From the NCBI GenBank assembly GCA_030747675.1, contig JASLKH010000052.1:1-13200 (forward strand): 13,200 bases of DNA, given 5' to 3'. Of this stretch, positions 2-12,330 are shown piece after piece. The DNA is from Candidatus Thalassarchaeaceae archaeon (GTDB lineage: Archaea; Thermoplasmatota; Poseidoniia; Poseidoniales; Thalassarchaeaceae). Below the pieces are notes generated by a model. That model searched no databases, was not told where the DNA came from, and worked only from the letters and a program-made list of their open reading frames with translations. Each line of letters starts with the position of its first letter. Position 1 is the stretch's first letter. The position numbers and the translations under genes were made by a program.

Positions 2-2038
2 TTGGTCTGGAACACAGAACCTTGGTGGACTTGGACAAGCTCAGATATCGACCGCAATGGTATTCATGACAGCCTTCAATCAGAAATGGAATCTGTTTGG
101 ATAGGGTTGTCATATAATCAAACTCCTACTCGTGAAGATGAATTCCGACTTGAAAGTTTAGGTTTTGATGTAAAATTGATTCTTCCATCGGTTGATGCAA
201 TATTGATTGGAGAGGTAAATGCTAGTGATATTTGGCAACTCGCTGAAATTGAAAATGTCGTGATGGTTGAAAGGTACGGTTTATTGGAGTTTTATGGAGA
301 TGTCCAAACACTTGCAGTCAAGGCCCGAAATTCAACTGAGTATCCAGAGAGTGCTTGGCAATTAGGAGTATCAGGACAAGGTGTCAATATTGCTTTGACA
401 GACACTGGCGTGGACAGTGAACATCCTGGTTTAGAAGGTAAGCATGTTGCTGGTTATGATGCAGTTTGTTTCTTGCATACGGACTTACATTCGTGTGTTT
501 TGGCTGGAGGTCGACAAAGTGACGGTTCATTTGATCCAGATGATGGTAACCAACATGGTACTGCCTGTATGGGAATGGCATCCGCAACAGGTGTTGAAGC
601 AGATGGAAGCCAATCTGAATATTATGGAAGTGCTCCCAATGCATCACTTGTCGATGTGAGAATTGGGACGGATGTCGGTGCAGGTCCGTTTGAAAATTAT
701 TTACTCGAGCAAGAATTCTATGAGTCTGCGATGAATGGTCTGCAATGGATTATTGACAACAAGGATACTGCGTGGGCAGGTACTGACGAGTCCCTTTATG
801 GAATTGATATTATTTCTCTTTCTTGGGGAATTACTAGCCATGAGGATGGTGGTTCAGATGGCACAGATATGCATAGCCGAATTTTGGATGAAGCAACAGA
901 GGCTGGAGTGACAGTATCGAATGCTGCGGGTAATGACGGAGAAAATAACGATGGCCTTTCAGGAATGAGTGCCTCATCACTTTCTATCACCGTTGGCGCA
1001 ACTGACGACAAGAATTCCGTTGACAGAGGAGACGATACTGTTGCAGGTTATTCCTCACGTGGTCCACGTCGTGATAATGGAGACGGCAATCCAGTCAACG
1101 AATTGATACCGGAGATTTCGGCACCAGGGACCAATATTATTCAGGCAGAAGGTTGTGTGACTAGTGGTGGATGCAACAACAATATCCCTGGTCAAGATGC
1201 AAGTGACAATACCTACACCGGGCGCGGATCGGGTACATCATATGCCACCCCTTCAGTTTCTGGAGTTATCGCACTAGTTATCGAAGCAAACCCTGATTTG
1301 AATCCAATGCAGATCAAAGAAGTTCTCAAGCAAACTGCAGAACGTCGGGGACCTGCATCGGCCCCGACAATCGACCCCTATTGGAATCGAGATTTTGGAT
1401 ATGGAATGGTCGATGCTAGGGCAGCTGTTGAATTGGCATTGCATCTAAAAGAGACCAATCAGAGTACGTCAATTGATTGGACAATCCAAAATCATATTCT
1501 TAATGTCTCAAATGAAGGGAAAAATGTCATCATCAAGGGACATGCATGGACACAATCAGATGTCATAGAGAGGGTGGAATTCAGGGTAGGGAATGGTGCT
1601 TGGTCAGAGTCGACTTATGAAATGGCAATTGGTGAACTTGGACCATTGACACCTTTCAACTGGACTATTGCTCTTGATACTTCAAAACTGGATGTGGGAA
1701 TCCAAACCATCGAAGTTAGGGCATCTAGGGGCGCCGTTCATTCAGTCCCAACAACTGTCACAGTAGAAGGTACAGGTAGCGCACAATCGTCATCAATGGG
1801 TTGGGTTGTTATAGGGGGCGGAAGTCTATTTGTTATTGCTTTGATTTCAATTATGATGGTTCTTGTGATGAAGCGAACTTCTGAGTCAATGACCGATCCT
1901 GAAATCTATGAGGCTGAAATTCTGGATGATGACTCCTACGACGAAATGACAGTTAAACAACTGAAGGACGAATTATCGTCAAAAGGTCTTTCTGTTTCGG
2001 GTAAAAAGTCTGATTTAATCTCTAGACTTCGTTCTTAA
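2..2038 (+). CDS. S8 (subtilisin-family) serine peptidase, 5'-partial, with Ig-like domain, C-terminal transmembrane helix and terminal SAP domain
   Basis: Catalytic triad in subtilase order: TDTGVD (Asp 401-403), NQHGTAC (His 554-556), GSGTSYATP (Ser 1238-1240). Oxyanion motif AAGNDG, plus SSRGP and PEISAPG. Hydrophobic helix at 1796-1870 and SAP-like YDEMTVKQLKDELSSKGLSVSGKKSDLISRL from 1937. The frame is open at the window edge, so the true start and signal peptide lie upstream. Confidence 0.95.
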   Translation: MVWNTEPWWTWTSSDIDRNGIHDSLQSEMESVWIGLSYNQTPTREDEFRLESLGFDVKLILPSVDAILIGEVNASDIWQLAEIENVVMVERYGLLEFYGDVQTLAVKARNSTEYPESAWQLGVSGQGVNIALTDTGVDSEHPGLEGKHVAGYDAVCFLHTDLHSCVLAGGRQSDGSFDPDDGNQHGTACMGMASATGVEADGSQSEYYGSAPNASLVDVRIGTDVGAGPFENYLLEQEFYESAMNGLQWIIDNKDTAWAGTDESLYGIDIISLSWGITSHEDGGSDGTDMHSRILDEATEAGVTVSNAAGNDGENNDGLSGMSASSLSITVGATDDKNSVDRGDDTVAGYSSRGPRRDNGDGNPVNELIPEISAPGTNIIQAEGCVTSGGCNNNIPGQDASDNTYTGRGSGTSYATPSVSGVIALVIEANPDLNPMQIKEVLKQTAERRGPASAPTIDPYWNRDFGYGMVDARAAVELALHLKETNQSTSIDWTIQNHILNVSNEGKNVIIKGHAWTQSDVIERVEFRVGNGAWSESTYEMAIGELGPLTPFNWTIALDTSKLDVGIQTIEVRASRGAVHSVPTTVTVEGTGSAQSSSMGWVVIGGGSLFVIALISIMMVLVMKRTSESMTDPEIYEAEILDDDSYDEMTVKQLKDELSSKGLSVSGKKSDLISRLRS

Positions 2039-2061
2039 TCCGTTTTCTAGGCACGCAACGG

Positions 2062-3252: not shown

Positions 3253-3834
3253 ATGTCCATTGAAGGCCAAATTGCAGGAATTGTGTTTGGTTTAATTTTT
3301 GGAATGATAATTCCTCGATTACCATTGCTCTTTTTCACTCGTTTTCTAAATCTTGAACGTGGATTAAGCCCTCATCCTGATCCCATCCCAGTCGATGTTC
3401 CACTTGTTCAAAGAATGCTGTTAATACGACGTATTCACATGATGGGTTGGGTTCTCGCCGCATTCCCATTACTTCTTTCAATTGCCATAATGCGAACATC
3501 ACCTGAACCATTTGCACTTGGGATGTTTGCGGGAGTTATTTGGTTCATTTTGTCAAGATTAATCCCAGTTAATATCCAATCTGGAGTTGGCATCATGCCG
3601 ATGAAATTAGTACGCCAAGTGAATAACTTGAGGCAACCAGACCCTCCTTGTTGCAATAGGCCCAGGCCTCAATGGGAAGTTCGTAAGGTTCGGTGCCGAT
3701 ATTGTAGAACGGTTATTTTGAACAAACCTCGCCCAGATATGGGGCGAATACGATCTGATGGGCGCTTACTTGGCTTATTTCGAATTTTGTTAATGGATGG
3801 CCGCTCTCTTTACAGGTCCGAAGAAGAGGAATGA
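3253..3834 (+). CDS. Hypothetical membrane protein, about 3 TM helices, with Arg-rich C-terminal region carrying CC...CxxC
   Basis: Good SD. Hydrophobic segments IAGIVFGLIFGMII, MMGWVLAAFPLLLSIAIM and FALGMFAGVIWFILS. Cys at 3649-3654 (CC) and 3694-3705 (CRYC). No family recognised. Confidence 0.8.
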   Translation: MSIEGQIAGIVFGLIFGMIIPRLPLLFFTRFLNLERGLSPHPDPIPVDVPLVQRMLLIRRIHMMGWVLAAFPLLLSIAIMRTSPEPFALGMFAGVIWFILSRLIPVNIQSGVGIMPMKLVRQVNNLRQPDPPCCNRPRPQWEVRKVRCRYCRTVILNKPRPDMGRIRSDGRLLGLFRILLMDGRSLYRSEEEE

Positions 3835-4937
3835 TTATCATTATCTAGAGAATCTAGTTGTTGTGCCAATTGTACAATTTTTTCTTCAAATGGTGTAGGT
3901 TCTTCTTTGGTATTTTCTTCTAATCCAATTTCATCCTCAGTGAGGTGAGCATCACTTCCTTTTGCCTCACCAACACCTTCTCCAGGTGCAGGTAACGCGC
4001 CTACACTTTCTTCTTCATCTTCCCCCCCTGTCCAATTGGCATTTGTTCCAATCATCCATCGGGGTATATCTTGTTCCCCTCCTCCCAAAACTGCCATTGT
4101 TGTAAAAATGGCCATTGGCAATAGAGAAAGAGCAACTAACAAGTCGAGGAATGAAGACTCAGGAATTTCAATCGACACAGGTATGATTGCTTCCAGTATT
4201 CTTTGTTCATCATACACTTGTTGCCACCGACCCACATCAAGGTCCAGTGCATCAAATGCAACCATCACTATGAATCGTTCAACCATCCATAGGAGTAGTA
4301 CGGGGAACAACCAGCCCAATTTTGTTCGATCAACTAATATCCGTCTTGCCACTGCAGCCGCGCCTACACTTTTTTCTGCAATTTTTGGGAAAAATCGTAA
4401 TCCAATTACTAAACCTGCAAGATATACTAGCAATGATAATTCTAATAATCGATTATCTTGCAACCAATGAGATGGAACAAAGCGAAGCACAAGCAGTGGT
4501 AACATGATTAGAACTAGTTGAACGGGGGCTGCTAATAGTTGCAAACCACCGTGAACTTCTAGTAATGGCCGCCCTCGATCCTTGACTTCACGATGTACAA
4601 TTCTAGTGACTTTTCCGTAGGGTGAAGATATCAATTGCAAACGAGCTCGATCGACCATGTCTGCATCTCGAAGACGTCGGCTAAATCCTAGTACTGGCAT
4701 CCATCCTCCAGCATCAGCAACTCTAGTTGGCATATAACCGCCAACAACCAGTGCAAGAGTTAATGATACCATGCCATAGAAAATTGCAGCACTGATAATC
4801 CATGGGAATAATTCAACGCGAAGTTGAATTGTATAGGTGCTCCAATCCACATCAACAATGTATGTCAATGTAAATGCTATAACCGGGGCAATGAAGACTT
4901 GTGTGGCAATAATTAGCGTCAGCCAAATTCTGGCCAT
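3810..4937 (-). CDS. Hypothetical polytopic membrane protein with acidic C-terminal tail
   Basis: Long ORF with about 6 hydrophobic segments and an E/D-rich tail. ATG 4937 is preferred over TTG 4961 because AGAGGT lies just upstream of it. The 3' end overlaps the convergent CDS by 25 nt. No family recognised. Confidence 0.8.
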   Translation of the reverse strand: MARIWLTLIIATQVFIAPVIAFTLTYIVDVDWSTYTIQLRVELFPWIISAAIFYGMVSLTLALVVGGYMPTRVADAGGWMPVLGFSRRLRDADMVDRARLQLISSPYGKVTRIVHREVKDRGRPLLEVHGGLQLLAAPVQLVLIMLPLLVLRFVPSHWLQDNRLLELSLLVYLAGLVIGLRFFPKIAEKSVGAAAVARRILVDRTKLGWLFPVLLLWMVERFIVMVAFDALDLDVGRWQQVYDEQRILEAIIPVSIEIPESSFLDLLVALSLLPMAIFTTMAVLGGGEQDIPRWMIGTNANWTGGEDEEESVGALPAPGEGVGEAKGSDAHLTEDEIGLEENTKEEPTPFEEKIVQLAQQLDSLDNDNHSSSSDL

Positions 4938-5057
4938 CAATGTACCTCTGATGGTGGACAACGAAACCTCTGGCGTCAGTTCTGACCTATAGCCTGTCGG
5001 CCGGATTATGATTGTTTGAGTCTATTTCTAGATTGAAATTTCAAGGCCGAAGTGATT

Positions 5058-5076
5058 ACCCTGTCGTAGACAGGGT
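5058..5076. repeat. Perfect hairpin, 8-bp stem with GTA loop (ACCCTGTC-GTA-GACAGGGT)
   Basis: Read directly from the sequence; lies in the divergent intergenic region. Confidence 0.85.
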
Positions 5077-5085
5077 TCAACCAAC

Positions 5086-5095
5086 CTTAAGACCG
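5086..5095 (+). promoter_or_regulatory. Putative TATA-like promoter element (CTTAAGACCG)
   Basis: 9/10 match to 2062-2071; TTAAG begins 38 nt upstream of ATG 5125. Confidence 0.4.
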
Positions 5096-5124
5096 GCTTG
5101 ATACTGGACAGGTTGTTGATTGTC

Positions 5125-8100
5125 ATGAAAGATGCTCGAATGCTCTTCGTACTTGGAATTCTAATTGCTGCTACTTTGACACCATTTGTTGCAAATGATG
5201 ATTCTCTAGATCCTAGTTCGAACTCAGAATATACTGAAGGCCGCGCTCAAGTTGACATGACAATTTTGGATATTACTGCAGGCAATGTATCAACGCCAGC
5301 CGAGGTGTGGACACAATCGTCAGGAACAACTCAAGATTATCTGATTCGAAACACTCTCTATGAAGTCACAATCACTTTCAAGAATGCTGGAACTGGATTT
5401 TCTTCGGTCGATTCTACTGGAACGTTGGAAATTATTCACCCAATTGGATTTGTAATGCAGATGTGGGAATTCAACATGTCCGGGCAATATGCAATGGCTG
5501 GTGGTCAGACAAGAACAGAGGTTGTTGAATGGACTCCTACTGCTTCCCACAGTTACGTTGACGAAATTGGAGATTTGGCAGGAGGCTTAATATTCCGTGG
5601 AAGCATTGAAACTGGGGCACTTGAATTGCAACCACAACGAGGAAATAACGAGTATCAAGAATCCTTCCCCGTTGCAGTTTGGCATGACAATTTGGAACCC
5701 ACACAACCCCTTTCATTCCCTGGTTACGGCAATCCACTTTTCGTGCCTGTTGCTTACGAAACTCGTTATCCAACCCCTACTCTATATCCTGGTGGTACTG
5801 ATTGGCAACCAGATAATTCTAGTGCAGCTGCAGGAAATCGGCATTGGAGAATGTCAAACTCTGGTGGTGATTACCCCTCTAACAACGTTGAGATGCTACG
5901 ATGGGGCTGGTTTACTAATTCGCAAGGTGACTGTGCTGACTCAGGTCACGGTTTAGGGTATGGTCAGTATGACTCTGATATCACTGCTTATTATTCTCAG
6001 CATTTCTGCACCGCCAACATTGGAGAGTATGATTACAAATCTCTTCATTGGGTGACAAATGCATATGGTTCAATGGCTCAAGGCGACGAGTTGGCTATGG
6101 AAGCTTTGCGTAGTTTCTTTCCAAGCGATATCCAACAACTCAATTTAACAGAACAATCACTTTCAACCACTGCAGGAGATTGGACTCAAGTTGTTTGGAA
6201 TATGACTGATGTCCACGATGAGCAAGCATTCATGATATCTTATTCGAAAATTGCAGATGAACAATTTGCCAATGAAGGAATCCACATAGATGATTTTGTA
6301 TTATTGGGTATCGATCGAGTCGAAGAATTCACAGTTACTCTTGAGTGTGATGATCCACTTCCTAACGCCTATGTTGTTATCCCAGCGGATCCTAATCCTC
6401 CATCGTTATATTGTGAATTGACGAATAATGGATATCGTGAGAAAACGATGACAATTAATACCGAGGTCAGCAATCAGACTTGGATGGCTAATTATCCACT
6501 TCGTATTGATAGTAACAATGTTGTTGACCATGATAATGTGGTGACTCTCTCACCTCTCGATGGTGAAACTACGACATATTTCTGGATCAATCTTACTATT
6601 CCCGAAGGTGCAAATGTAGAGACTTTGAATTGGACAGTTGAAATTAGTAACAACAATTTCGGGTCCACCGAAGAGAAAGCCTCCATGCTTATCCCAGTCA
6701 GTGTTGATTCGTCTTATTCAGTTAGAATTCAGCAAGTAGAATCAACCGGCCAAAATGTTGCTTTGACTCTTGAACCAGGTCAAACAGGTGACATTGAGAT
6801 GCGTATCAAGAATACAGGGAACAAATATGCAGATTGGAATTTAGGGGCCTACTTTGACAGTACACTGTGGTGTGACAATTGTCCAAATGACAACCTTGCG
6901 TGGTTGGAAGATTGGGATGGAGATGGCAACATGACTGAAATTACACAACTTGGACTATCTAAGAGTGAGGAGCGTTATGTAACAGCCCGATTTACGAGTC
7001 CATTACAAATGCCTCCCGGATTAGTTGAAGTTTCATTACTCGCTAGTGGAGTTCCTCCAGCAAGCGCTCAATCGATTAAGCAAGTAATCATTGAAGTTCC
7101 AGTCATCCAAGATGTCTCTGTAGAAGCTCAGCAGTCTTCATTGATGGCATCTGCTAATGGATTTACTCGGACAATGCCTATTACTATTACAAATAATGGA
7201 AATGCACCTGAATACTTTGATGTGTTAATCAATGCAGACATACGCCTTCAAGCCTACTTGAATACTGAAATTACTGAAGAGATCGACCCCTTTGGCGGTC
7301 AAACAACAGTAATGGTCATCTTGCCAATGAATCCAGGGTTGCCTGACGAAATGTCGCCCTACCAAGTGACAGTAACTGCGCGTTCGAAAACGGATAGTTC
7401 CCACAGTTCATCGGGTTCATTTGACCTCTCTGTTCCAGTAACATATCTCACCGAGGTTCAGGATTATGGCCAATTAACCGAGCAGACTTTCACACCAGGT
7501 GAGAATGCCAAAACATTGAGGTTTGAAATTTTCAACCATGGTAATGATCCCGACGCATTCACAATCGATATGGCACTTGACTCAGGCGTTATAGCGTCAA
7601 TATCGAGTGGAGTTTCAGATGGCCGTACTCCTTACATCGACCCAGGTACATCAACGAATATCACAATTTCTTATTCATTTTCAGATGGTACATCTGGCCT
7701 GCGAACAATGACAATTACATCTACAAGTGTTTCAGCAGCCTCCGCAGGTGAAACCATTACTGCTTCGGGAGAAGCAATCTTTGACGTTGGTGAAAAGGGA
7801 TGGTTATTACTTGAGCCTAGTCAGCCGATTGAAATCGATGAGCCCGGCACATATTCGATGTCTGTTCGCATTTTGAATCGACACCCTGACCGTAATCAAG
7901 AAATTGATCTTCAGGTGATTACAGATGGAACAGAACGTTGGGATTATGTTGACAAAATACGACCGGGTGCACTTGACGTTGCCGGATTCTCACTTGATCC
8001 AGGGGTAGAACGAATCATCACCATTGAAATCCGATTGACGGAAACGAATTTGGAAAACCTACCACAAGATAGCATGGATTACAATTTCACAGTGCGAGTT

Positions 8101-8610
8101 GCAGCAACAGATGACACATCAGATATTGTACTTAGTTTTACAACCAACCAATTTTCAGAATCTTCAAATTCAGATTCAGAGAGCTCAGATGACTTGTTGA
8201 AGAGTATTGCAATTTGGACATTGGGCGGTCTAGTGATTATTGCACTTCTAGCAGTATTGGTCAAAATCATAATTTCCACAGAGCACGAAGATGAGATTTC
8301 GACTTTATCAGGTTATGAATCCAATCTCGAGTTGCCAGATGCTCCCTCATTGCCTGAAGCACCGACTTTACCTAGTGCGGATTTGACTGCTAATTCGATG
8401 TATGGCGGCACTCAGGAATTATTTGAGCAACCAGTGATGACTACACCACCTGCTCCAGAATCAACGGTTGCTTCAGATCCAGCACCAGTTCCAGAACCAG
8501 CACCTGCAGCCGGCCCTCCGTTGCCTGAATCGGGCTTGCCAGAGGGGTGGTCTATGGAGCAATGGACACACTATGGTGAGGAATATTTACGCCGGCAAAA
8601 TGAGTCGTAA
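5125..8610 (+). CDS. Large type I membrane-anchored cell-surface glycoprotein: jelly-roll/MAM-like region plus tandem CARDB/COG1470-like Ig repeats
   Basis: Signal-peptide-like N-terminus MKDARMLFVLGILIAATLTPFVA (ATG 5125 preferred over TTG 5098). Recurring Ig-repeat motif: ITFKNAG, LTNNGY, IKNTGN, ITNNGNAPE, IFNHGNDPD, ILNRHPD. GIHIDDF resembles the GWYIDD strand of MAM/jelly-roll domains. At least 11 N-x-S/T sequons. TM helix about 8203-8274, then a Pro-rich tail. Domain names are recognised by eye only. Confidence 0.85.
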   Translation: MKDARMLFVLGILIAATLTPFVANDDSLDPSSNSEYTEGRAQVDMTILDITAGNVSTPAEVWTQSSGTTQDYLIRNTLYEVTITFKNAGTGFSSVDSTGTLEIIHPIGFVMQMWEFNMSGQYAMAGGQTRTEVVEWTPTASHSYVDEIGDLAGGLIFRGSIETGALELQPQRGNNEYQESFPVAVWHDNLEPTQPLSFPGYGNPLFVPVAYETRYPTPTLYPGGTDWQPDNSSAAAGNRHWRMSNSGGDYPSNNVEMLRWGWFTNSQGDCADSGHGLGYGQYDSDITAYYSQHFCTANIGEYDYKSLHWVTNAYGSMAQGDELAMEALRSFFPSDIQQLNLTEQSLSTTAGDWTQVVWNMTDVHDEQAFMISYSKIADEQFANEGIHIDDFVLLGIDRVEEFTVTLECDDPLPNAYVVIPADPNPPSLYCELTNNGYREKTMTINTEVSNQTWMANYPLRIDSNNVVDHDNVVTLSPLDGETTTYFWINLTIPEGANVETLNWTVEISNNNFGSTEEKASMLIPVSVDSSYSVRIQQVESTGQNVALTLEPGQTGDIEMRIKNTGNKYADWNLGAYFDSTLWCDNCPNDNLAWLEDWDGDGNMTEITQLGLSKSEERYVTARFTSPLQMPPGLVEVSLLASGVPPASAQSIKQVIIEVPVIQDVSVEAQQSSLMASANGFTRTMPITITNNGNAPEYFDVLINADIRLQAYLNTEITEEIDPFGGQTTVMVILPMNPGLPDEMSPYQVTVTARSKTDSSHSSSGSFDLSVPVTYLTEVQDYGQLTEQTFTPGENAKTLRFEIFNHGNDPDAFTIDMALDSGVIASISSGVSDGRTPYIDPGTSTNITISYSFSDGTSGLRTMTITSTSVSAASAGETITASGEAIFDVGEKGWLLLEPSQPIEIDEPGTYSMSVRILNRHPDRNQEIDLQVITDGTERWDYVDKIRPGALDVAGFSLDPGVERIITIEIRLTETNLENLPQDSMDYNFTVRVAATDDTSDIVLSFTTNQFSESSNSDSESSDDLLKSIAIWTLGGLVIIALLAVLVKIIISTEHEDEISTLSGYESNLELPDAPSLPEAPTLPSADLTANSMYGGTQELFEQPVMTTPPAPESTVASDPAPVPEPAPAAGPPLPESGLPEGWSMEQWTHYGEEYLRRQNES

Positions 8611-8662
8611 GTCCATCACCTACGAAGCGGTCGACTTATGAAGGCCCCCTCGGTGGGCTGCT

Positions 8663-8677
8663 CGCTCCGTAGGAGCG
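8663..8677. repeat. Perfect hairpin, 6-bp stem with GTA loop (CGCTCC-GTA-GGAGCG)
   Basis: Read directly; ends 8 nt before the GGTGGG SD of the thermosome gene. Confidence 0.8.
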
Positions 8678-8698
8678 TCTCATACGGTGGGAATTGAT

Positions 8699-10318
8699 AT
8701 GTACGGTGGACAACAACCAATCTTCATTCTGAAAGAAGGAACAAATAGAACACGTGGAAAGAGTGCTCAGAGCAACAATATTGCTGCAGCAAAGGCGGTA
8801 GCAGATGCGGTTCGAACAACGCTCGGCCCAAAAGGAATGGACAAAATGCTGGTGGATAGTATGGGTGATGTAGTTATCACAAATGACGGTGCTACAATCC
8901 TCAAAGAAATGGATATTGAACATCCTGCGGCAAAGATGATTATTGAGGTTGCAAAAACACAAGAGCAACATTGCTATGATGGGACTACAAGTGCAGTGGT
9001 TATCGCTGGAGAATTACTCAAGAGAAGTGAAGATCTAATCGATCAAAACGTCCATCCTACGGTCATTTGCGAAGGCTTCCGTTTAGCTGCAGATCGGGCT
9101 GTTGGACTTTTAGATTCACATTCAGTCAATGCAGATGAAAAAACACTTCATGAAGTTGCCAAGACCGCGTTGACAGGTAAATCAGCAGGTGCAGTAAAGG
9201 CATTCCTAGCAGACATTTGTGTTAATGCAGTACAAGCAGTTGCCAGGGAAGAAGATGGTGAAATAGTGGTAGATCTTGATGATGTTAAGGTTGAGAAGAA
9301 ACAAGGCGGTTCAATCAAAGATAGCACTCTAGTTGACGGTATTATCCTCGATAAAGAGAGGGTTCACAGTGGTATGCCTAGGAGCGTAAATAATGCGAAA
9401 GTCGCTTTGATTAATTCTGCAATTGAAGTCAAAAAAACTGAAGTCGATGCAAAAATTCAGATTACAGATCCAACTATGCTTTCCCAATTTTTGGAAGAGG
9501 AAGAGAATTACCTCCGCAGTTTGGTTGAAAAAATACAAGCTGCCGGTGCAAATGTTGTAATTTGTCAAAAAGGAATTGACGACCTTGCTCAGCACTATAT
9601 GTCAAAAGCTGGATTATTTGCAGTTCGACGAGCAAAGAAGAGCGACATGGAAGCCCTTTCCAAAGCAACAGGTGGTCGTGTTGTTACTAACATTGACGAT
9701 TTATCAGGTGATGATTTAGGGCATGCTGCTAAGGTTGATGAAAGGAAAATTGGGGAGTCCGACATGGTATTTGTCACCGGTTGCCCTAAGGCTAAGAGTG
9801 TCTCAGTATTACTTCGTGGTGGCACTGAACACGTTGTTGATGAAATCCGAAGGGCTTTTGACGATGCAATCGGAGTGGTCAGTGTTGCACATGAAGATGG
9901 AGCAGTTCTCACAGGTGGTGGCTCAGTTCTTGCCGCTTTATCTCGCGAACTTCGATTATATGCAGAAGGTGTTGGAGGGCGAGAACAAATGGCAATTGAA
10001 GCATTTGCCGGCGCTTTAGAAGTGATTCCTCGAACCCTTGCTGAGAACGCAGGTCTGGATCCTGTGAATACAATTATTGATGTTCGAAAGGCACATGCTG
10101 AAGGTAAATCGACATACGGCGTAAATGTGTTTGAAGGCGGTGTGATGGATATGCATGCTGCCAATGTACTGGAGCCTGTACGAGTCGTTGAGCAGGCAAT
10201 ACAATCTGCAACAGAAACTGCAATCATGATTTTACGAATTGATGACGTCATTTCCAGCCGTGCAGGTGGCGGAATGCCAGACATGGGTGGCATGGACGGC
10301 ATGGATATGGGTTTCTGA
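8699..10318 (+). CDS. ths: Thermosome subunit (group II chaperonin)
   Basis: [86 protein letters not shown] and a GGM-rich tail. Colinear with Thermoplasma thermosome subunits as recalled. ATG 8699 is preferred over GTG 8687 because that GTG is part of the SD GGTGGG (8686-8691). Alpha versus beta subunit not assignable. Confidence 0.98.
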
Positions 10319-10395
10319 GGGAGAGGGATAGTGCCGCAAAGGCTCGCCCTTGACCCGCTATGTTCAATAATCGAAATCCAGTCGATAGCCTCGTT

Positions 10396-10410
10396 CAGCC
10401 CGTAGGGCTG
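10396..10410. repeat. Perfect hairpin, 6-bp stem with GTA loop (CAGCCC-GTA-GGGCTG)
   Basis: Read directly; separated by 1 nt from the SD GGGTGA (10412-10417). Confidence 0.8.
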
Positions 10411-10422
10411 TGGGTGATTCCG

Positions 10423-12330
10423 ATGTCAGCGGTTACAAAAGTCTGGATCGATGAGGGCTGTATCACTTGCGATGCATGCGAAAACATCGTTCCAGAAGTT
10501 TTCCAAGTGGAAGATGAGACTTGTGTAATTGTTGATGGTGTAAATCCCAGTGAATGGGGCGATGACATCATTGAAGCTGCTGAAGGCTGTCCAGTTGACG
10601 TAATCATGTATGAGGTCGCTGGGGCTGATGAAGAACCGGCAGAAGAATCTCCGGCAGAAGTAATCGAAGAAGCCGTTGCTGTGGCCGAGGAAGTATCTAC
10701 AGCAAGTGCAGGGGCTGGTGTATTAGCTGAATTGATGAGCGGTGACCGAGATGTCCACATATTCTTTGGTAGCCAATCCGGTAATGCAGAATCTCTTTCT
10801 GCTAAATGGGCAAAGAAAGCCTCTGACTATGGGTTGGTTGGCCATGTTCATGACATGGACGGGTTTGATATTGCCACTATGAGCGGAATGAAAAGAGTCC
10901 TAATTGCTTGTTCTACTTGGGGTGAAGGTGATATGCCAGATAACGCTGAAGCGTTATACGCTGCAGCGAAAGGCGCAGGGAAGATACTTTCAAACACACA
11001 TTTTTCAGTCTGCGCATTAGGTGACTCTTCTTACGAGTTCTTTTGCGAATCAGGAAAAGAATGGGACCAGGTCATGGAGGAAATGGGCGCCTCCCGGATT
11101 CACGAAAGAGTTGATTGTGATGTAGACTACGATGCTCCTTCGGAGGCGTGGATGTCCATTGCAATGTCAAAGATAGCCTGCGTTGATGATAGTGGTACGT
11201 TCCAAGAAGATTTACTTGAGGCGATGATATCTCATGCTTCAGGCGACTCCTCAGCTGCTGTTGCAGGTGATGTAGCATCAGTGGCAGAGCCTGAAATTCA
11301 AGTCACAGCTACAATTTTCCGATACGATTCCATGACCGGTGAAACTGGGGCTGATGCATGGGCCTGTTCGCTACCAGGGCATTACAGTGTCCTCCAACTA
11401 TTACGGACACTGAAAAGTACTCAAGATGGTTCATTGACGTTCCGAGATGGTGCAAATAATGACCCTACTACTGGTGTTTGCGTCAATGGTCGTCTAGTTT
11501 TACCTGGTATGGTGCGACTATCCGATATTGCTAGGGACAAAGGAAACGGTGCCCAAATTCGAATTGAACCTCTTGCGGCTTTCGATGTGATTCGTGACCT
11601 TGCTGTAGACCTTTCTTCATATGACAAACTTCGAATGTCAACCAAGCCTTGGTTTGTAGGCGGAGAACGAGAGGGCTCCTATGCTTCGGGAGTCGTAATG
11701 GGTACAATGGATCCAGTTGTGGCTACAGAATTACATTCATCTACCAATTTTGAGAGCCACTACATTTTACACGCATCTAGTGATGCAGTTCCACACAACC
11801 AATCATACATTGGACCCGCCTTGGTTAACCATTTGTGGAACAGATCTTGCGACCCCCGAATATCCGACAAATCTAGAACCGCAATTATTGAATCTCTCTC
11901 TGATGTAAATGGTGTTAAGGCTGAAACAGACATGGCTAGTATCCGTCGTCAAGGAACCATGGGATTGGCAGTATCAAAATCAATTCTGCAAGCGAAAAAA
12001 GCAGCCTTAGCACATGACGGTTATAATGGCCGACACGGAAAACATGTCTGGTGGTATACTTGGTCCATAAAAAGTAGTGGAAAGGTGAATGAGACGACGC
12101 TCTATAGAACTGTTTTGGGCCCAATGGGTTTGGCGAGTAATGCACTTTCTGGTGTATCTGCTAGGATGATTTTTGGATTCACACGTACAGGGCGACCAAT
12201 GATCAATGAATTGTTAGCCCTAGTTGCCCCTCCTGCCGGCATTGGTAAAATGCCAAAGCAATTTAATTCAAAAGTTGAAAATCATCATGAGGTGGTTTCA
12301 ATTTTCAATGAAATGGATGGTCGATTCTAA
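10423..12330 (+). CDS. Fusion protein: [4Fe-4S] ferredoxin + acidic linker + flavodoxin + cysteine-less SdhB/FrdB-like domain with type-E-like C-terminal extension
   Basis: ATG 10423 follows SD GGGTGA. Ferredoxin: CITCDAC (10459-10479) and CPVD (10588). Flavodoxin about 10753-11178: FGSQSGNAE, STWGEGDMPDNA, LGDSSYEFFC, RVDCDVDY. SdhB scaffold from about 11299: IFRYD, SVLQLL, SLTFR, VNG, IEPL..F.VIRDLAVD, KPW, YIGPA. None of the cluster cysteines is present. Confidence 0.9.
   Translation: MSAVTKVWIDEGCITCDACENIVPEVFQVEDETCVIVDGVNPSEWGDDIIEAAEGCPVDVIMYEVAGADEEPAEESPAEVIEEAVAVAEEVSTASAGAGVLAELMSGDRDVHIFFGSQSGNAESLSAKWAKKASDYGLVGHVHDMDGFDIATMSGMKRVLIACSTWGEGDMPDNAEALYAAAKGAGKILSNTHFSVCALGDSSYEFFCESGKEWDQVMEEMGASRIHERVDCDVDYDAPSEAWMSIAMSKIACVDDSGTFQEDLLEAMISHASGDSSAAVAGDVASVAEPEIQVTATIFRYDSMTGETGADAWACSLPGHYSVLQLLRTLKSTQDGSLTFRDGANNDPTTGVCVNGRLVLPGMVRLSDIARDKGNGAQIRIEPLAAFDVIRDLAVDLSSYDKLRMSTKPWFVGGEREGSYASGVVMGTMDPVVATELHSSTNFESHYILHASSDAVPHNQSYIGPALVNHLWNRSCDPRISDKSRTAIIESLSDVNGVKAETDMASIRRQGTMGLAVSKSILQAKKAALAHDGYNGRHGKHVWWYTWSIKSSGKVNETTLYRTVLGPMGLASNALSGVSARMIFGFTRTGRPMINELLALVAPPAGIGKMPKQFNSKVENHHEVVSIFNEMDGRF

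Follow-up and report, generated by a model that had tools for sequence, protein, structure and literature searches.

Short perfect inverted repeats with a preferred C-(G/A)TA-G loop on the gene-start side of intergenic regions in Poseidoniales

A family of perfect DNA inverted repeats, amounting to about 80 copies per genome and nearly all intergenic, was found in Marine Group II archaea (Poseidoniales). The repeats form hairpins with a three-nucleotide loop and GC-rich stems of 6-8 bp, up to 11 bp, whose sequence is arbitrary. Within intergenic gaps they are positioned on the side of a gene start; evolution conserves their pairing, whereas the loop changes, often by inversion. Taking the evidence together, we tentatively favour, at somewhat less than an even chance, the reading that these lineage-specific repeats act mainly as a promoter-proximal DNA hairpin or cruciform signal. 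The family is apparently undescribed, as no description of it was found in print.

Three C-GTA-G hairpins had been noticed in the window (the whole stretch of DNA that was analysed, 13,200 nucleotides), and all three were confirmed, read on the + strand, at the positions given in Table 1. Hairpin 1 lies in a divergent gap between a minus-strand ORF ending at 4961 and a gene with its ATG at 5125. Hairpin 2 is located 8 nt upstream of the SD-like site GGTGGG (8686-8691) and 21 nt upstream of the thermosome ATG at 8699, while hairpin 3 is followed by GGGTGAT (10412-10418) and then by the ATG at 10423 of a ferredoxin/flavodoxin-domain gene (Pfam families); the reported adjacency of two copies to SD sites therefore holds. 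Other + strand copies of CGTAG, at 2293, 4616, and 6109, have stems of only 3, 2, and 1 bp, in line with the weak pairing described for them, and no further CGTAG or CATAG on either strand of the window has a stem above 3 bp. Conserved sequences beside the hairpins could be promoter elements. TTAAGA, downstream of hairpin 1, is a candidate TATA-like box from its resemblance to GTTAAA(G/T)A of ribosomal-protein loci. The box before hairpin 2, whose TTAT and next A are the same in all 17 loci, is a putative promoter element, and that before hairpin 3 may have a TATA-like function.

Table 1. Hairpins and neighbouring conserved features of the window
Feature	Position	Strand	Sequence	Remarks
Hairpin 1	5058..5076	+	ACCCTGTC-GTA-GACAGGGT	8-bp stem, GTA loop, C-G closing pair
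Conserved block	5077..5093	+	TCAACCAACCTTAAGAC	directly 3' of hairpin 1; invariant or near-invariant columns in a 21-sequence alignment
Candidate TATA-like box	5087-5092	+	TTAAGA	inside TCAACCAACCTTAAGAC; 32 nt before ATG 5125
Candidate TATA-like box	8635..8642	+	CTTATGAA	TTTATGAA or TTTATCAA in relatives; ends 20 nt before hairpin 2
Hairpin 2	8663..8677	+	CGCTCC-GTA-GGAGCG	6-bp stem, GTA loop
Candidate TATA-like box	10363..10371	+	TTCAATAAT	AT-rich, conserved columns; TTGAAGAAT in most relatives; ends 24 nt before hairpin 3
Hairpin 3	10396..10410	+	CAGCCC-GTA-GGGCTG	6-bp stem, GTA loop

The three hairpins are retained genus-wide despite diverging flanks. Hairpin 1 is kept in 22 of 22 genus loci (its own locus counted) with a constant stem, except for the outermost pair, which is lost in two; its loop is GTA in 13 loci, ATA in six, and TTA in three. 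Hairpin 2 is kept in 17 of 17 loci with 100% of the alignment cells of the stem paired, and one of its pairs reads C-G in 14 loci but T-A in the other three, a two-sided change; the loop is ATA in three of the loci. The stem of hairpin 3 is invariant in 17 of 17 loci, with one extra pair in two of them; GTA forms the loop in 16 loci, ATA in the remaining one.

Perfect triloop hairpins with a stem of at least 6 bp were surveyed in a genome of 1.68 Mb (G000). C-GTA-G is the most frequent combination of closing pair and triloop, accounting for 52 of 744 hairpins genome-wide, and C-ATA-G ranks second with 29. The excess over chance that the preliminary description had claimed is very large: 43 C-GTA-G hairpins lie wholly inside non-coding-like segments, compared to a mean of 0.09 and a maximum of 1 in 100 dinucleotide-preserving shuffles of 147,590 bp of such DNA, and triloop hairpins of all kinds number 159 compared to 37.8 in the shuffles. 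GTA also ranks first among the triloops of intergenic DNA; the C-G-closed loops in the non-coding-like DNA comprise GTA (47), ATA (23), GGA (4), and GAA (3). The idea of a fixed GTA loop has to be modified, however, since the loop is actually G/A-T-A: it starts with G or A, has a strong bias towards T in the middle, and keeps its 3' A. The closing pair of the 68 GTA-loop hairpins is mostly C-G (52), the remainder being G-C (6), A-T (5), and T-A (5). Stem lengths show a separate mode at 6-8 bp that is lacking in control loops, and the stems are unrelated between copies apart from C-richness beside the loop. A generic DNA folding model without a GNA-loop term gave equal energies for both strands, from -6.1 to -8.1 kcal/mol.

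The position of the hairpins was examined in intergenic gaps of at least 25 bp, grouped by gene arrangement. In G000, hairpins are present in 34 of 187 divergent gaps (18%), 35 of 376 tandem gaps (9%), and 1 of 44 convergent gaps (2%). The corresponding values are 11/72, 25/166, and 0/19 in a second genome (G014) and 5/46, 8/103, and 0/11 in an independent genome (G118). A gene start lies within 150 nt of 73 of 81 hairpins, at a distance from the start codon that varies from 0 to over 100 nt. The hairpin comes before a candidate TATA-like box at some loci and after it at others, and a crude word search for a promoter motif yielded no clean motif. The common orientation upstream of + strand genes, seen in the window, does not generalise genome-wide because the tandem gaps of G000 contain 20 sense and 15 antisense copies and because the loop flips between species.

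Orthologous loci were compared through spanning BLAST matches (queries of +-600 nt) that were 63-83% identical. Among 45 retained orthologous hairpins, 310 of the 320 compared pairs are the same and 10 are changed on both sides with pairing preserved, and the stems change at a rate about tenfold below that of their surroundings. It is thus the pairing and not the stem sequence that is conserved, as had been suggested, and the compensatory maintenance of stems in relatives, proposed as a check, was found. The loop differs in 25 of the 45 hairpins and is therefore a strong preference rather than a fixed signal; in eight it is inverted with the stem untouched. When a hairpin is present in one species and absent in another, the difference was never a clean hairpin-sized indel (21 aligned cases), and the alignments indicate that hairpins arise and decay in place, with no insertion. 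A similar behaviour is seen in plastid non-coding DNA, where the loop between short inverted arms flips among close relatives while the stem is constant. Plastid hairpins are mostly 3'-end RNA stabilisers, and we know of no loop-sequence preference among them.

The hairpin class occurs in both main families of Poseidoniales, with a patchy distribution among genera, and was not found in the sister families searched. The suggestion of a lineage-wide element is borne out to this extent, across the genus and both main families. A hairpin at the L10e gene occupies the same relative place in four of four genomes of Poseidoniaceae g5, and its position is common to two families. In the hairpin-rich genus g1, a hairpin proxy word is enriched in eight of eight genomes. 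A T7-type RNA polymerase (PF00940) is encoded in two of these eight and, order-wide, in 10 of 151 genomes; its occurrence does not follow that of the hairpins, a result that the incompleteness of metagenome-assembled genomes (MAGs) weakens but does not reverse.

If the repeats work as DNA, negative supercoiling, supplied by gyrase (A and B are both encoded) and by transcription moving off from the promoter, or a local opening of the strands would cause them to extrude as small hairpins or cruciforms. Extrusion would cost less because of the compact C-(R-T-A)-G loop, in which a purine and the A form a sheared pair and one base is flipped out, as at the early promoters of phage N4. The extruded form could be a structural promoter-proximal signal, that is, a supercoil-sensitive switch or buffer, or alternatively a landing site for a loop-reading protein. 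For repeats downstream of the start site, such as hairpins 2 and 3 by position, the hairpin may additionally form in the RNA and cap the leader at its 5' end.

According to the N4 reports, the N4 early promoters carry a small DNA hairpin with a stem of 5-7 bp, a 3-nt loop, a C:G closing pair, a 5' G and a 3' A in the loop, and stem bases that are free if paired. In the same reports, extrusion and stability need the C:G closing pair and the two loop bases, extrusion from supercoiled DNA is gyrase-dependent, and cruciforms were detected at a superhelical density of -0.035 with Mg2+; C:G closure is reportedly worth approximately 2-3 kcal/mol in d(GNA) loops. The apparent correspondence of the family to these reported requirements favours DNA over RNA. 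As described there, however, the three N4 promoters have a GGA or GAA loop (purine centre), stand at a constant distance from the start site and in a single orientation (template strand), and are served by a T7-like polymerase of their own together with SSB, whereas here approximately 80 chromosomal copies have a T centre, vary in both distance and orientation, and lack a dedicated polymerase. An N4-type hairpin promoter proper was rejected on these grounds, as orientation and distance are unfixed and no cognate polymerase tracks the hairpins. The same C-GNA-G core is found in the d(GCGNAGC) mini-hairpins of Hirao, Yoshizawa and others (phage G4, RSF1010 ssi origins), whose extra stability is ascribed to a sheared G.A pair that depends on C:G closure, the closure of 52 of the 68 GTA-loop hairpins here. 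The known natural cases each serve as a single priming signal of a single-stranded replicon; the family described here differs from them in that it is chromosomal and promoter-side, accepts A for the loop G, and prefers a middle T, which the stability rules do not require.

Several observations count against the DNA reading. Arms of 6-8 bp are shorter than usually held able to form cruciforms, the preference for a middle T is unexplained by DNA mini-hairpin stability alone, and the ATA variant has no G.A pair. A sheared A:A pair in an AAA loop is said to exist, going by the title of a report. Orientation is not fully random, which fits a strand-specific and possibly RNA role, and hairpins 2 and 3 are placed as 5'-terminal leader hairpins would be. 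A survey of 118,019 genomes (PMC13155455) located perfect inverted repeats mainly in intergenic DNA near transcription starts and ends and, like the present analysis, observed conserved arms and fast-changing spacers. It was limited to arms of at least 10 bp, because shorter arms were thought unable to form cruciforms, and to complete genomes (687 archaeal), and it reports no loop-sequence rule; the 6-8 bp class of a lineage known mostly from MAGs is therefore invisible to it.

The repeats could instead be RNA elements, 5'-terminal or intercistronic stem-loops that provide protection from 5'-to-3' exonuclease, cistron insulation, or SD context, with loop inversion and the like as side effects of any perfect inverted repeat. 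We regard this as a genuine but minority possibility. Hairpins 2 and 3 begin 20 and 24 nt past conserved, putatively TATA-like boxes, at approximately the expected transcription start and directly before SD and ATG, and the genes beside all three window hairpins were found in metatranscriptome contigs. Sense copies outnumber antisense ones among the hairpins lying no more than 30 nt from a start codon (13 versus 5), in tandem gaps pooled from the three genomes (43 versus 25; p 0.038, with orthologues not independent), and in the tandem gaps of G118 (7 versus 1). On the other hand, 15 of the 35 tandem-gap copies of G000 are antisense, and the loop flips between species while the hairpin is kept. 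At least five copies lie upstream of the adjacent gene's TATA-like box, at five loci 7-11 nt upstream of the candidate box and hence outside the presumed transcript of the gene, and 52 of 70 hairpins are more than 30 nt before the start codon. The earlier suggestion of a 5'-leader hairpin accordingly fits hairpins 2 and 3 by position, but not hairpin 1 and the ribosomal-protein loci, where the hairpin is upstream of the putative box. No G.U-type pairs occur within or past the stems, which is unusual for RNA helices; the first mismatch beyond the stem is of G.T type in 42 cases and of A.C type in 31, giving no wobble signature, and the helix almost never resumes past it. The rules for closing pair and loop fit DNA and match none of the RNA triloop rules in the literature consulted, and no Rfam match was found in the window at the gathering score or at four further loci at E <=0.01. 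The inversion of 8 of 45 loops over an untouched stem, the occurrence of both orientations, the absence of a wobble signature, and the distances from start codons and candidate boxes all argue for DNA over RNA.

The DNA reading also has to be weighed against an origin without function, in which GC-rich palindromes result from template switching or fold-back repair and are kept perfect by arm-to-arm correction; the GTA/ATA centre would then reflect the best-nucleating fold-backs and CpG-type G-to-A decay, with no selection. The inverted loops show the arms interacting as DNA and imply arm-to-arm templated repair, and such repair could keep the arms complementary and yield the two-sided changes with no selection on structure. 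Rapid loop change, birth and decay in place, patchy abundance among genera, and the lack of a common function among neighbouring genes would be explained as well. However, each window hairpin persists in 17 to 22 species-level genomes despite diverging flanks, stems change about ten times more slowly than their surroundings, and the L10e position is common to two families. Nor would a neutral mutational process be expected to produce the strict gene-start-side bias and the near absence from convergent gaps, and we consider this explanation unlikely.

Very little weight is given to a role in terminating transcription of the upstream gene or stabilising its 3' end, or to double-stranded operators of a dimeric regulator. 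The start of some copies is no more than 3 nt from a stop codon, but divergent gaps are richest in hairpins and convergent gaps nearly devoid of them, and runs of at least four T within 12 nt are unenriched (7 of 81 hairpins versus 6.9 +- 2.3 at random non-coding positions). Palindromes are typical of operators, but the half-sites would need to differ at every locus, and non-complementarity is maintained between the bases on either side of the centre, suggesting a loop rather than a symmetric protein site. Least probable of all, and largely refuted, is a mobile REP/MITE-like repeat spread by a transposase recognising the folded hairpin: the copies are abundant, intergenic, GC-rich, palindromic, and in both orientations, as are bacterial REP/BIME elements, and GTAG recalls the tetranucleotide of E. 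coli REPs, but REPs, which are perfect or imperfect palindromes, have a sequence in common within each genome, are located mainly at 3' ends or in operons, and come with a Y1 transposase (RAYT), whereas the stems here are unrelated, the copies are gene-start-sided and syntenic genus-wide without insertion footprints, and PF01797 (Y1/HUH transposase), the partner that had been proposed, had no match among 151 genomes of the order, against matches in 6 of 14 control genomes.

The family is a rare candidate for cellular use of a very stable DNA mini-hairpin, so far represented by a few phage and plasmid signals. On the DNA reading, cruciform-type structures would be used genome-wide with arms far below 10 bp, a class that current surveys exclude by design. 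A bolder and rather doubtful extension is that extruded mini-hairpins might be a general supercoil-gated promoter accessory in Poseidoniales. The C-(R-T-A)-G loop, its T flipped out, would be recognised on either strand by a host protein, and local superhelical stress would be coupled to initiation at about 5-10% of genes, gyrB and a gene for a type IA topoisomerase among them. Such an accessory would amount to a cellular version of the phage N4 hairpin promoter, and no cis element of this kind is known to us from archaea. Under the RNA reading, what has been defined is a widespread leader element. On either reading, the hairpin family should be masked or modelled in the annotation of MAGs, and the frequent loop inversions call for caution with intergenic alignments and phylogenies. 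In surface ocean waters, Marine Group II rank with the most abundant archaea and, to our knowledge, have no cultured member, so that their transcription control is nearly unstudied. The simple, checkable rules of stem length, closing pair, loop, and gene-start position provide a handle on their promoter regions.

The genome from which the window comes (G000; 1.68 Mb in 100 contigs, 43% GC, the window being its contig C52) contains 744 perfect triloop hairpins whose stems are at least 6 bp long; their most frequent loops are GTA (32) and its complement TAC (36). A C-G pair closes 52 of these 68 hairpins, and when closing pair and loop are counted together, CGTAG/CTACG (52) and CATAG/CTATG (29) lead the next class (19). 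The family, counted as perfect stems of at least 6 bp with a C-RTA-G core only, has 81 copies. The underlying gene map is a crude longest-ORF map, in which 94.7% of the genome is called coding and ORF starts are over-extended; gaps together with the first 45 nt of every ORF were taken as non-coding-like DNA, which makes up 8.8% of the genome. This fraction holds 173 triloop hairpins, including 47 C-GTA-G and 23 C-ATA-G hairpins, and 43 C-GTA-G hairpins lie wholly within non-coding segments, compared to a mean of 0.09 in 100 dinucleotide shuffles. The genome-wide triloop count against shuffles, proposed in the preliminary description, therefore gives GTA as the top loop, enriched in non-coding-like DNA, and the hairpin excess is beyond chance by a wide margin. 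In addition, CGTAG sites with stems of 1 to 9 bp number 949, 255, 69, 26, 4, 19, 23, 9, and 1, respectively, showing a second mode at 6-8 bp that is shared by CATAG and missing in nine control cores. No dominant sequence was seen among the 4- to 8-nt loops of this genome. The stems have a GC content of 72%, compared to 46% in their surroundings. The word SCCCRTAGGGS, which catches the CCC/GGG-cored subset of the family only, occurs 37 times in the genome, compared to 4 and 1 for loop-swapped controls.

A gene start lies within 150 nt of 73 of the 81 copies. The 52 C-GTA-G copies are distributed among gaps (36), sites at most 40 nt from an over-extended ORF start (12), and positions deep in ORFs (4). 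The context of all 81 copies is divergent for 34, tandem sense for 20, tandem antisense for 15, convergent for 1, a contig end for 2, and intra-ORF for 9, several of which are chance hairpins. Among gaps of at least 25 bp, a hairpin is present in 34 of 187 divergent, 35 of 376 tandem, and 1 of 44 convergent gaps, and these rates are near two : one : zero, which is the number of gene starts per gap of each type. The same pattern is found in G014, a genome sharing orthologues with G000 (11/72, 25/166, and 0/19), and in G118 of the family Poseidoniaceae (5/46, 8/103, and 0/11). The distance to the nearest refined start codon, a heuristic assignment in which the start may be miscalled for the 7 copies at 0-4 nt, is broadly spread and exceeds 30 nt in 52 of 70 copies; this broad distribution speaks against discrete distance classes. 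T-runs are not enriched beside the hairpins. The neighboring genes are diverse, with L10e, S19e, an Rrp4-like protein, gyrase B, and a type IA topoisomerase confirmed by Pfam and the remaining functions guessed from N-termini. A relation to the replication strand was rejected: hairpin strand matches the sign of GC skew in 38 of 81 copies and the local gene-strand majority in 44 of 81, and matches to SCCCRTAGGGS alternate in strand along single large contigs of G118 and of another genome, G081. Adjacent hairpins share their orientation in 22 of 33 cases (p 0.08). One divergent gap of about 600 nt on contig C30 holds two family hairpins of opposite loop orientation, 70 nt apart; this gap has no called gene and may contain an unannotated small gene or RNA.

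The taxonomic range was surveyed with SCCCRTAGGGS as a proxy word in 151 genomes of Poseidoniales, relative to the reversed pattern. The eight genomes of the source genus in Thalassarchaeaceae (g1) show 37-48 matches versus 3-15 reversed, and genus g5 of Poseidoniaceae shows 11-51 versus 0-2. The counts are intermediate in g3, g7, g15, g20, and g11, and at background in g4, g6, and g16-g19. True hairpins per 400 kb number 26 in G014 and 17 in G118, in both of which they are the top class, and 3 in G020. These counts agree with those of the proxy word, and the hairpin class spans MGIIa and MGIIb. Thus, the lineage-wide element that had been suggested is present in both main families of the order, but several of its genera (g4, g6, and g16-g19) remain at background, and two additional families of the class, represented by 45 genomes, show no excess of the proxy word. 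The hairpin of L10e occupies the same relative position in all four g5 genomes, with stems unrelated to that of G000; it is the only such cross-family position found, S19e and gyrB having no hairpin in the g5 genomes. None of the 12 scanned thermosome loci of two other families has these hairpins; a further locus, L027, yielded no ORF.

Within the window, the three hairpins were located again exactly at the positions first reported, and each is indeed upstream of a + strand gene, encoding a 1170-aa protein, the thermosome, and a ferredoxin/flavodoxin-domain protein, respectively. The two copies said to adjoin an SD site are hairpins 2 and 3. The thermosome is 92-93% identical to that of the closest named relatives, Candidatus Poseidoniales / Thalassarchaeaceae (Marine Group IIb) MAGs. 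Neither an Rfam family at gathering score nor a tRNA was found within the window, and three of its ORFs match no Pfam family at E ≤0.001. The 1170-aa ORF has a signal-peptide-like N-terminus after the ATG at 5125. The subtilase (Peptidase_S8) has a C-terminal SAP domain, which is a DNA-binding motif and uncommon on a protease. Three metatranscriptome runs from one study matched with small shares (0.19, 0.06, and 0.06); their short contigs, for which no molecule starts were given, contain exact pieces inside the three genes, and none of the pieces listed crosses a hairpin.

Coordinates of the hairpins and associated features in the window and elsewhere in G000
Feature	Location	Strand	Remark
Subtilase	window 2-2038	+	Peptidase_S8
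ORF, 193 aa	window 3253-3834	+	no Pfam family
ORF, 383 aa	window 3810-4961	-	no Pfam family
Hairpin 1	window 5058-5076	+	
Conserved 17-nt block	window 5077-5093		directly 3' of hairpin 1
ORF, 1170 aa	window 5098-8610	+	gene after hairpin 1; no Pfam family
Hairpin 2	window 8663-8677	+	
Hairpin 3	window 10396-10410	+	
Metatranscriptome pieces	window 6972-7208, 8705-8928, 8934-9178, 9295-9446, 10445-10653, 10491-10686		exact matches
Shared-layout loci L151-L154	C59 ~1370-1440, C61 ~8950-9020, C11 ~11440-11530, C58 ~1960-2040		
Hairpin pair	C30 25696-25783		opposite loop orientation
11-bp stem hairpin	L186 151-185 (C97 ~18050-18084)		gyrB
8-bp stem hairpin	L187 (C69 ~4785-4803)		type IA topoisomerase

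Hairpin 1 is present in all 22 genus loci with an unchanged stem, except for an outer pair lost in 2, and its first loop base is G in 13, A in 6, and T in 3. Hairpin 2 is fully paired in all 17 loci, where one pair is C-G in 14 and T-A in 3 and the loop is ATA in 3; its covariation score is reached by 1 of 500 shuffles, which, with a single varying pair, is weak alone. Hairpin 3 is the same in all 17 loci apart from one ATA loop. The block directly following hairpin 1, TCAACCAACCTTAAGAC, is all but invariant in 21 genus sequences, in which the flanking DNA varies. This block is conserved beyond the need of a plain TATA box and may serve the 1170-aa surface-protein gene as a specific operator or leader element.

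G000 was compared with samples comprising 799 kb of G014, 400 kb of G013, and 205 kb of G016; the four genomes have orthologues in common and are thus not independent. Of the 80 unique locus pairs obtained, 45 retain a hairpin whose stem is related, 22 lack a hairpin of at least 5 bp, and 13 were scored as unrelated, about 5 of these being the same stem in a shifted register as judged by eye. With ±600-nt queries, BLAST matches across the hairpins show 63-83% identity. Of 320 base pairs compared in the 45 retained hairpins, 310 are the same and 10 have changed on both sides with pairing kept; this comparison covers perfect stems alone, so that one-sided changes appear as shorter stems or as absent hairpins and are uncounted. 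These ten changes bear out the maintenance of stems in relatives that had been put forward as a check. The loops of the same hairpins are identical in 20 cases and otherwise comprise 3 GTA/ATA switches, 8 inversions, one of which has an extra transition, 13 other triloops, and 1 change of size. Loop inversion is a known phenomenon in hairpins. Most of the other loops (GAA, GCA, GGA, CTA, and AAA) are one step from GTA or ATA; TAA and TTC are not. This pattern resembles that of a weak selection for GTA working against a fast mutation of the loop. In 21 cases, several of which involve chance hairpins within conserved coding sequence, one species lacks the hairpin; the site is then occupied by degraded DNA of about the same length, and a clean indel of hairpin size was seen in none of them.

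Upstream of 514 SD-supported starts, the enriched 6-mers are CG-rich words and the hairpin core itself. Because no clean TATA word emerged there, all TATA assignments are made locally from conservation. TTCAAG-like words show no positional peak. The enrichment upstream of genes relative to the genome is 7.6-fold for CGCGCG and 5.9-fold for GCGCGC, which suggests that CpG is depleted in coding sequence or, more generally, that leaders are GC-rich and structured. Five copies are located 7-11 nt upstream of a TATA-like box, at the loci of hairpin 1, L10e, S19e, the Rrp4-like gene, and an 80-aa gene, one of them with the opposite loop orientation. Four loci have a common layout of hairpin, 7-8 nt, GTTAAA(G/T)A, ~10 nt, a GGTCGGCGG-like word, SD, and ATG, followed by the genes for L10e, S19e, the Rrp4-like protein, and the 80-aa protein, which has no Pfam family. 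This arrangement resembles a strong promoter combined with a conserved leader word, serving translation- or RNA-related genes. The idea that the GTTAAA box precedes structured-RNA genes was rejected, as there are no Rfam or tRNA matches and the genes are protein-coding. Upstream of the Poseidoniaceae thermosome (L018-L026 and L030), RAGGGTTCAAG is conserved ~40-55 nt before the start codon, with variants in L028 and L029, and the Thalassarchaeaceae genus has TTTATGAA at this place. RAGGGTTCAAG may represent a heat-shock operator or the form that the promoter box takes in Poseidoniaceae.

As for partner proteins, the HUH/TnpA-REP nuclease that had been proposed as a search target did not appear: no Y1/HUH transposase was found in the 151 genomes, in a search whose positive controls stood at 6 of 14. 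A T7-type single-subunit RNA polymerase (PF00940) is encoded in 10 of the 151 genomes, which belong to 8 of 22 genera from both families and include 2 of the 8 g1 genomes; this scattered distribution is consistent with a mobile cassette. Neither protein explains the hairpin family.

The leading, still tentative reading is a promoter-proximal signal at the DNA level, in the form of a hairpin or cruciform. The family keeps C:G closure, a purine at the 5' end of the loop, and an A at its 3' end. According to a review of N4, a C:G closing pair, a 5' G, and a 3' A are needed for extrusion and stability of its promoter hairpins, which have a 5-7 bp stem and a 3-nt loop and form cruciforms at a superhelical density of -0.035 with Mg2+; their extrusion in vivo is described there as gyrase-dependent. 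For d(GNA) loops, other work puts the gain by C:G closure at 2-3 kcal/mol. In favor of a DNA signal, divergent gaps, where the twin-domain model expects the most negative supercoiling, are the richest hairpin location, loops are inverted without hairpin loss, and five copies are upstream of a TATA-like box. The stems are Watson-Crick perfect on both strands and have no wobble signature (42 G.T-type versus 31 A.C-type in five pooled genomes). A G.T-wobble test for the folding strand was discarded, the apparent T.G excess in G000 being lost on pooling.

An RNA leader or intercistronic hairpin is less likely and ranks second. Hairpins 2 and 3, besides adjoining SD sites, start 20 and 24 nt downstream of conserved AT-rich boxes, near the transcription start that the usual archaeal TATA-to-start spacing would predict. 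Moreover, copies at most 30 nt from a start codon are 13 sense versus 5 antisense, and those in pooled tandem gaps are 43 versus 25. Weighing these lines of evidence, we place the DNA signal first and the RNA hairpin second; the two are not mutually exclusive. That the hairpins are a functionless by-product, third in rank, is improbable, and other readings of the family are minor.

G000 encodes both gyrase A and gyrase B. The longest family member, with an 11-bp stem, precedes gyrB by ~20-30 nt, with eight A's after it, and an 8-bp member is found 82 nt upstream of the type IA topoisomerase gene. Seen after the fact, the presence of the element at two topology genes is suggestive of a link to supercoiling.

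Stable GNA mini-hairpins, N4 hairpin promoters, and inverted repeats enriched at transcription starts are described in earlier work (PMC4496689, PMC3201870, PMC13037366, PMC13155455). The largest survey, which was confined to complete genomes and excluded arms shorter than 10 bp, describes conserved arms and variable spacers for inverted repeats at transcription starts (PMC13155455). In literature outside subscription journals, we found no account, for archaea or Marine Group II, of a chromosomal hairpin family that extends over a genome and obeys this loop rule. With its ingredients already known, the part that appears new is a chromosomal, genome-wide archaeal hairpin family that follows a C-RTA-G loop rule.
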